A DNA stretch of 64,000 bases. Origin: Escherichia phage JP4. The stretch lies in sequence record PQ330092. One strand, written 5' to 3'. The position numbers were made by a program, and so were the translations under genes. Of this stretch, positions 1,108-1,140 are shown in pieces; position 1 is the first letter of the stretch; each line of letters starts with the position of its first letter. The notes under the pieces are model-generated. The model was not told the origin of the DNA and searched no databases. It was given only the letters and a program-made list of their open reading frames with translations.

Positions 1108-1140
1108 GGGTTGACTTCGGTCAGCCTTTTTTGCTATAAT
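1108..1140 (+). promoter_or_regulatory. dual terminator/promoter element: GGGTTGACTTCGGTCAGCC hairpin + T-run inside TTGACT-N18-TATAAT
   Basis: Perfect stem with UUCG loop followed by T6; -35 TTGACT lies in the stem and TATAAT follows; precedes 1167..1403. Confidence 0.55.

Follow-up and report, generated by a model that had tools for sequence, protein, structure and literature searches.

Can one short sequence end the transcript of one gene and, with the same bases, start that of the next? This question is raised by a 36-bp cassette in Escherichia phage JP4 (PQ330092), from which we analyzed a stretch of 64,000 nucleotides, referred to here as the window. A first-pass annotation of this DNA had described a recurrent stem-loop followed by a T-run, in the form of an intrinsic terminator, whose 5' arm carries a -35 box with a -10 box further downstream.

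By sequence comparison, the window derives from an Asteriusvirus-type (PBECO4/121Q/G17-like) E. coli jumbo phage of the Rak2-like clade, and bases 1-8000 and 35000-46900 show 95-99% identity to G17, Sharanji, PBECO4, 121Q, SP27 and CRJP21. An exact direct repeat with a period of 20,114 bp extends from 26792 to 46905 and continues in tandem from 46906 to the end of the window (64000). Relatives carry direct terminal repeats of similar kind (20.7 kb in Sharanji, PMC11895373; 22.5 kb in CBB, PMC5259590), and the CRJP21 record begins exactly at the left edge of the repeat (26792). We therefore take the repeat copies as the terminal repeat, present twice head to tail. Such a tandem corresponds to the terminal repeat across a concatemer-like or circularised junction. 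In the terminal repeat, approximately 40 near-consensus promoters of the sigma-70 type precede small ORFs; nearly all of them point along the + strand, and most lack a hairpin. The region 1-7000 had been labelled a late block, a label that finds no support; for its counterpart in CBB, early expression has been proposed (PMC5259590). A search for tRNA and tmRNA genes returned none.

Six unique copies of the cassette are present in the window, three of which recur in the second terminal-repeat copy; the fourth element of that copy would fall past the window end. The 14-nt core TTGACTYCGGTCAG matches exactly at 1111, 2525, 35882, 39902, 43171 and 45429 and, in the second repeat copy, at 55996, 60016 and 63285, which bears out the recurrence noted earlier (two copies early in the window and four per repeat copy). 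Allowing up to 2 mismatches, the core has 11 matches in the window against 0.27 expected by chance. The 21-nt consensus proposed earlier is slightly inexact; its extra A/T after GGG occurs only in the three GGGATTGAC...GTCAGTCCC copies, and the full pattern with up to 2 mismatches misses the elements at 1108 and 35880. The copies and their neighbors are as follows:

1105..1140, + strand: E1, AAAGGGTTGAC-TTCG-GTCAGCCTTTTTT-GC-TATAAT; -35 at 1111-1116, -10 at 1135-1140, spacer 18; stop codon of ORF 485-1096 upstream, ATG of ORF 1167-1403 located 26 nt past the -10
2519..2554, + strand: E2, AAAGGGTTGAC-TTCG-GTCAGCCCTTTTT-GC-TATAAT; -35 at 2525-2530, -10 at 2549-2554; stop codon of the HNH-like ORF 1396-2514 upstream, ATG of the AAA-type ORF 2583-3353 located 28 nt past the -10
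35875..35910, + strand: E3, AAAGTGGTTGAC-TTCG-GTCAGCCATTTT-GC-TATTAT; -35 at 35882-35887, -10 at 35905-35910, spacer 17
39895..39930, + strand: E4, AAAGGGATTGAC-TCCG-GTCAGTCCCTTT-GC-TATTAT; -35 at 39902-39907, -10 at 39925-39930
43164..43199, + strand: E5, same sequence as E4; stop codon of ORF 42510-43151 upstream
45422..45457, + strand: E6, same sequence as E4; stop codon of ORF 45206-45406 upstream
55989..56024, + strand: copy of E3 in the second terminal repeat, offset 20,114
60009..60044, + strand: copy of E4 in the second terminal repeat
63278..63313, + strand: copy of E5 in the second terminal repeat

All copies share the same order of parts, namely an A-tract, a stem arm, a 4-nt loop (TTCG/TCCG), the second stem arm, a T-run, GC and TATAAT/TATTAT. 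The E1/E2 type, AAAGGGTTGACTTCGGTCAGCC(T/C)TTTTTGCTATAAT, occurs in two copies, AAAGTGGTTGACTTCGGTCAGCCATTTTGCTATTAT in one and AAAGGGATTGACTCCGGTCAGTCCCTTTGCTATTAT in three; in E3, an outer stem pair is altered on both sides (T-A). The -35 box TTGACT covers the 5' arm and the first loop base; described earlier as perfect, it agrees with the consensus at 5/6 positions. The spacing reported for the -10 box holds: the spacer measures 18 bp in E1 and E2 (1111 and 2525) and is one base pair shorter, 17 bp, in E3-E6, and a TG (extended -10) precedes the -10 box in every copy of the window. The T-run comprises 6 residues in E1, 5 in E2 and 3-4 in the repeat copies E3-E6. The predicted RNA hairpins of the window copies reach -13.9 to -19.5 kcal/mol (z -4.3 to -5.9), and no shuffled sequence folds as well.

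The distribution of the element was assessed with blastn using a 39-nt query. It is found in 59 phage records, all of them Rak2-like jumbo phages except for two Desulfovibrio phage matches. These records include Asteriusvirus, Alcyoneusvirus, Mimasvirus, Eneladusvirus and Erwinia/Salmonella jumbo phages, and the hosts of the Rak2-like phages are Escherichia, Salmonella, Klebsiella, Erwinia, Pectobacterium and Serratia. Individual records have 1-4 copies, rising to as many as 8 when they contain both repeats. In addition, a scan of IMG/VR with a pattern fixing only the promoter bases and leaving the 3' arm free yielded 87 stretches; together with seven phage loci, approximately 45 of the 106 pattern matches belong to this hairpin family, jumbo contigs among them. 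Pooling all loci gave about 100 distinct copies; the figures below refer to 98 distinct sites, 41 variants or 103 hairpins.

Across these copies, TTGAC, TG and TAnnnT at a spacing of 17-18 bp are the most conserved positions. TTGAC is invariant in 41/41 variants, the spacer measures 17 bp at 67 and 18 bp at 31 of the 98 distinct sites, and TG precedes the -10 box at 92/98. The box itself reads TATTAT at 64 and TATAAT at 22 of these sites, and TAnnnT at 16-19 bp is kept in 98/103 hairpins with a TTGAC arm. The placement is equally regular: a same-strand ORF ends 4-49 nt (median 11) upstream of the -35 box in 86/98 sites, and in copies that lack the leader motif described below, the next ATG with a Shine-Dalgarno sequence (SD) follows 23-49 nt past the -10 box, with no other promoter present before it. 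The element is nearly identical in sequence across genera with differing flanking genes. As all copies are homologous, the design with the -35 box in the stem arm arose once, and its coincidence across copies does not count as independent evidence.

The pattern of variation in the stem points to an RNA structure. In the hairpin alignment 98% of cells are paired, and both-side changes occur at four outer pairs (25 cells), giving GGG/CCC, GGGA/TCCC, GTGG/CCAT and AGTAC/GTACT, the last of these in CBB and GAP32; the observed covariation was reached by 0/500 shuffles. Three pairs have their 5' partner in TTGAC, and these vary on the 3' side only, always to a G·U wobble; the commonest is U·G at pair 9-22, seen in 35/41 variants. 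On the opposite strand such wobbles would be C·A, so the stem is intact only in the gene-sense RNA. UNCG and GNRA are the two classes of unusually stable RNA tetraloops; UNCG accounts for 64/103 loops (62%) and GNRA for 7 (7%). A T-run of 3-6 residues follows the stem at each of the 98 sites.

In local blastn of bases 1-8000 against G17, UB, ELP-22, SP27 and 121Q, homology breaks at 455, 1095 and 2515/2518, each time within an element. The features of this locus are:

441..455, + strand: degraded half element TCAAGGATTCACTTC, aligning to the 5' arm and loop of the intact element found at this position in G17 and SP27
456..1094, + strand: insertion absent from G17, UB, ELP-22, SP27 and 121Q, carrying ORF 485-1096
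1161..2514, + strand: cassette between E1 and E2 with a 78-aa ORF and a 372-aa HNH/homing-endonuclease-like ORF

The half element ends within the loop, where homology to the relatives stops, to resume at 1095; ORF 485-1096 sits as an insertion in the loop of a former hairpin element. A tblastn search of 50,697 phage records found no homolog of this ORF (203 aa), and Pfam and PHROG gave no match either. The 372-aa ORF matches PHROG 559 (7e-24). Pfam identified an AAA-type ATPase at 2583-3353 and was uninformative on the other neighboring ORFs. Between a 119-aa gene and the AAA-type gene, SP27 has one element and no E1-E2 cassette; at the same place, the window shows in order the half element, the ORFan, E1, the 78-aa and HNH-like ORFs, and E2. 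121Q, UB and ELP-22 have other cassettes between the same two elements, and the endonuclease cassettes at this position differ among 121Q, UB, ELP-22 and G17, with none in SP27. In Serratia BF, CBB, Hallingskeid and Munch, the element is also followed directly by HNH genes; overall, HNH endonucleases make up approximately 5/29 downstream gene families, and most downstream genes are not nucleases. A role of the element as a nuclease cleavage site was considered and is disfavoured, because SP27, which lacks the HNH cassette, carries the same element as is found on either side of it.

In the terminal repeat, comparison with five relatives placed most break points at other promoter modules rather than at hairpin elements, with some records breaking near 35855-35861 and 39882. 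The association of the elements with indels is therefore weak in this region, and we do not claim an enrichment of break points at them there; element-bounded indels together with a half copy, and with them the case for a role in recombination, are clear at one locus only (441-2554). A separate break is seen between Munch and 7t3: Munch (L005) has an HNH endonuclease gene at 1503-2140 that 7t3 (L006, 1504-1610) lacks, and the two are nearly identical up to CCCACAGGG inside the leader motif and divergent thereafter.

This leader motif is found downstream of the hairpin promoters of the terminal repeat. It had been reported as a conserved motif behind each early-region copy, followed by a normal promoter module. 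The motif is real, approximately 30 nt long and of the form CTAR-CCCAYAGGGTGC-...GTATCTAT (in its fuller form CTAR-CCCAYAGGGTGC-RNARNTGYRTCTAT), and in three copies it is followed by AAAAAGTACTTGCA-N16-TATAAT; the copy at 45425 has a different promoter. The positions are:

35933..35962, + strand: leader after E3, CTAG-CCCACAGGGTGC-AGGAGTGTATCTAT
39948-39977, 43222-43251 and 45475-45504, + strand: leader after the further hairpin-promoter copies
29971-30000 and 37591-37620, + strand: leader behind hairpin-less promoters, e.g. those at 29921 and 37538
27881-27892, 28096-28107, 30032-30043 and 31564-31575, minus strand: leader
35995..36031, + strand: second, hairpin-less promoter after E3, AAAAAGTACTTGCAA-N16-TATAAT, predicted to feed ORF 36083-36424
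~40013-40048 and 43285-43320, + strand: equivalent second promoters after E4 and E5
45570-45598, + strand: second promoter after E6, TTGACA-N17-GATAAT

The leader occurs about 11 times per terminal repeat, always 21-28 nt past a -10 box, and is conserved across the Klebsiella, Salmonella, Erwinia and Pectobacterium jumbo phages. Since it also stands behind other promoter types and on both strands, it is a separate module and not specific to hairpin promoters. In 7t3, L050 and L085 it runs straight into an SD and ATG, 69-71 nt past the -10 box, and is thus a 5'-UTR element in these cases. RNAalifold recovered from the leader only an invariant 4-bp CCC/GGG hairpin, with no covariation. An enclosing outer stem reached -5.2 kcal/mol with the cognate and -4.5 kcal/mol with permuted flanks (24/2000 permutations as low), which is modest support, and we do not claim the leader as a structured RNA. 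Rfam searches of the whole window at the gathering threshold, and of the terminal repeat by E-value, gave nothing relevant and no match to the leader; weak matches to mir-1000, Trp leader and S15 are at chance level and located elsewhere. The ordinary AAAAAGTACTTGCA promoters of the terminal repeat are followed by 5' UTRs with G+C-rich hairpins, e.g. GGGGAAAcggTTTCCCC, at ~36040-36060, 40055-40085 and 43335-43355.

The best-supported reading, and one that we hold with good confidence, is that the element is a composite of an intrinsic terminator or attenuator and a sigma-70-type promoter. Transcription arriving from upstream would yield an RNA hairpin of 8-12 bp, usually UNCG-capped and followed by 3-6 U, and this hairpin would act by intrinsic termination or attenuation on the transcript of the gene ending a few bases upstream and would stabilise its 3' end. 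As double-stranded DNA, the same bases would form a strong sigma-70-type promoter, with an A-tract, TTGAC in the 5' arm, TGn and TATAAT/TATTAT, whose 17-18 bp spacer holds the 3' arm and the T-run and which would restart transcription for the next gene. A start about 7 nt past the -10 box is predicted from the sequence and the fixed SD/ATG distance. The U-run would then lie at about -16 to -11 from the start, and the incoming polymerase would be released over the -10 box, so that the promoter may be insulated from read-through and occlusion and the downstream gene may form an autonomous unit. All copies have the G+C-rich stem and loop of an intrinsic terminator, followed by 5-6 U in E1 and E2 and 3-4 U in E3-E6. 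As the short U-run of the repeat copies can pair with the upstream A-tract, termination may be partial there. The absence of hairpins from most promoters of the terminal repeat indicates that insulation is not a general need. Because identical copies lie at many intergenic sites, homologous recombination between them could also move ORFan and homing-endonuclease cassettes, a role proposed for the promoter-early stem-loops (PeSLs) of T4-like phages. The earlier proposal of a terminator and a promoter in one sequence is thus favored by the comparative evidence and by the PeSL precedent (PMC2839356). The sequences show the layout of the element, how it is conserved and, at one locus, where the indels are bounded, while termination, initiation and recombination are activities that we infer.

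An inverted repeat at a -35 box could also be read at the level of DNA, either as the operator of a dimeric regulator or as a cruciform or single-strand hairpin signal of the N4 type, with no RNA terminator involved. The promoters of the phage N4 virion RNA polymerase are extruded DNA hairpins with 3-nt loops that are read by this phage enzyme. Similarly, the element has a hairpin-forming sequence within an early-region promoter; unlike in N4, however, its boxes follow the sigma-70 consensus and its variation pattern points to an RNA hairpin. The overlap with the -35 box is a classical operator position, and the phage does have other palindromes in its promoter spacers (CAGTACTG, described below), but the half sites of the element are not identical (T·G at pair 9-22 in 35/41 variants), and further changes raise the asymmetry yet keep RNA-type wobble pairing. 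The outer stem has changed fully from GGG/CCC to AGTAC/GTACT with complementarity kept, which argues that structure rather than a protein-read sequence is preserved. Given also the prevalence of RNA-specific stable tetraloops and the T-run always directly 3' of the stem, we consider a DNA-level signal very unlikely. The opposite simplification, a terminator whose promoter likeness is a by-product of its A/T-rich tail, with downstream genes served by read-through or other promoters, would agree with GenBank annotation, where terminators alone are marked, and the second, ordinary promoter downstream of the repeat copies could suffice for expression. However, a terminator needs neither the TTGAC, TG and TAnnnT bases nor their spacing, which are the most conserved positions, and the -10 box is kept in 98/103 hairpins. 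The leaderless copies, with an ATG 23-49 nt past the -10 box, have no other promoter at all, and this reading is very improbable.

The composite terminator and promoter is compatible with a further reading, which adds to it: the cassette may persist as a portable recombination or homing module, travelling with and targeting the insertion of ORFan and homing-endonuclease genes, with its regulatory activity making insertions viable. The element-bounded insertions and the half copy at 441-2554, the different endonuclease cassettes between the same elements in relatives, the HNH genes directly downstream in four other phages and the near-identity of the element next to different genes all speak for it, and PeSL mini-circles provide a precedent (PMC2839356). 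On the other hand, the elements around the HNH cassette equal the single one of SP27, most break points of the terminal repeat lie elsewhere and most downstream genes are not nucleases; we rate such a module as possible, with a chance somewhat below even. The first-pass annotation had also suggested that the elements seed short transcripts, and stand-alone RNAs of the CCCAYAGGGUGC leader could indeed be imagined from the terminal-repeat hairpin promoters, as no ORF lies between these and the second promoter, the leader is conserved across genera and always 21-28 nt past a -10 box, and in the distant relative PA5oct the terminal repeat gives rise to two abundant ncRNAs (PMC7318152). Yet no G+C-rich hairpin with a U-run was found between hairpin promoter and next gene, nor any terminator-like fold from the transcription start to the next promoter, so that short transcripts are not supported; the leader regions show no unusual degree of structure (z +0.2 to -2.1). 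With the leader placed directly before SD and ATG in 7t3, L050 and L085, a supported structure of just 4 bp and no Rfam match, we judge such RNAs unlikely; the hairpin promoter and the second promoter would thus form a tandem pair for one gene rather than a short transcription unit. More speculative still is the idea that hairpin promoters and leader form one system, in which the leader would be a cis recognition element of the nascent RNA, a small boxB-like hairpin RCCC-NNN-GGGU, marking polymerases so that they read through the hairpin terminators that follow or undergo a timed shut-off, and turning the cassettes into switchable punctuation. We think this improbable.

The closest known counterparts are the PeSL cassettes of the T4-like phages RB49 and phi1 (Arbiol et al. 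2010, PMC2839356). A PeSL comprises a stop codon, an AT-rich tract, sigma-70 -35 and -10 boxes with a stem-loop inside (including G-T pairs), an SD and an ATG. In a lacZ assay its stem-loop terminated as well as rrnB T1, its promoters were so strong that clones picked up -35 or -10 mutations, and crossovers mapped within the loop (PMC2839356). The elements described here share this layout, including the A-tract upstream of near-consensus sigma-70 boxes, a stable stem-loop within the promoter, intergenic placement, many copies per genome and, at 441-2554, variable genes and indels. In both systems, cassettes lie between two copies in one phage where a close relative has one copy, and ORFans and homing endonucleases are preferred neighbors. 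However, there is no sequence similarity to the described PeSLs, no T4-like phage is among the blastn matches of the element, and the genome is an Asteriusvirus, within the Rak2-like jumbo phages, instead of a T4-like (Tevenvirinae) genome. The stem here always lies over the -35 box, in contrast to RB49 and phi1, where it is commonly between -35 and -10 or over the -10 box; and the hairpins here form one conserved family with UNCG loops, as opposed to the polyG/polyC stems of RB49 and phi1. Finally, activities have been measured for PeSLs, whereas those of the elements are predicted from sequence. The lack of shared sequence, the other clade, the fixed -35 overlap and the single family together indicate a PeSL-like, non-homologous cassette, which is best described as a jumbo-phage counterpart predicted to work like a PeSL.

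Further PeSLs are known from KVP40/nt-1 and T4/PST (Comeau et al. 2014, PMC4122927). The nt-1 stem consensus A3-4 G3-loop-C3 T3-4 resembles the outer stem found here (AAAGGG...CCCTTT), and degraded half copies occur at indels, like the one at 441-455; their promoters differ, reading TTGYVH/TAWWAT. Ordinary intrinsic (Rho-independent) terminators have in common with the element a G+C-rich stem, a stable tetraloop, a U-run, an upstream A-tract and a place just past a stop codon. In the element, unlike in these, promoter boxes place a further constraint on the 5' arm and the tail, and the U-run is as short as 3-4 in the terminal-repeat copies.

In part, the element is already on record. The G17 GenBank entry carries ARNold terminators on these hairpins: three lie in the counterpart of bases 1-3000, and each of the four terminal-repeat hairpins has one, with both element sequence types covered. 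The UE-S1 entry has terminator features on them as well; neither of these two entries has a promoter annotated at these sites. The searchable literature on CBB, Sharanji, G17 and PA5oct holds no description of a hairpin inside a promoter, and the same literature yielded neither RNA 5' or 3' ends for any phage of the clade nor a transcriptome of a Rak2-like coliphage. What was known before is therefore the annotation of the hairpins as terminators and, for T4-like PeSLs, the anatomy and behavior of such a cassette. The cassette opens no new biological principle. Its recognition would add approximately 10 strong promoters per genome to 350-kb Rak2-like records that mark only terminators, and would help to delimit their transcription units. 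It would also carry the PeSL principle (stop, restart and help to shuffle genes) beyond T4-like phages into a second large clade, and the presence of such cassettes in two clades suggests a general solution for phages that gather many small autonomous genes. For E. coli, the elements could serve as compact (36 bp) insulated expression parts.

Several other features of the sequences were noted. A different hairpin-in-promoter design, TTGACTTCGGGTACCCGATTTGCTATTAT, with a palindrome between -35 and -10, is present at the IMG/VR loci L024, L032, L036, L059, L067, L087 and L089, which are unrelated smaller phage contigs. In the window, there are 79 copies of the 8-bp palindrome CAGTACTG, where 0.6 would be expected, spread over the whole length (e.g. 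27131, 27314, 27340, 29935, 30072, 37552 and 45584, and also 1371, 2666, 5874 and 8835). In the terminal repeat it often sits within the promoter spacer just 5' of the -10 box (CAGTACTGgCATAAT) or lies ~60 bp upstream of promoters, which points to a site for protein binding or modification. Almost no ORFs are found in the first 1.7 kb of the terminal repeat. Near its left end (27795-28165, 29921-30093 and 31604-31632), units of promoter plus leader on opposite strands are directed towards one another, such as 29921(+) and 30093(-), and convergent transcripts would overlap. The E. coli Chi sequence GCTGGTGG is present 22 times against 0.67 expected, with 10 sites per terminal-repeat copy (27369(-), 27381, 33150(-), 33212, 37252, 38715, 39983, 42331, 43737 and 45537, plus their repeat copies) and further sites at 14814-15334(-). 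Eight of the ten per copy are + strand sites, oriented such that they would stop RecBCD coming from the right genome end, and one minus-strand Chi lies 577 bp from the left end.
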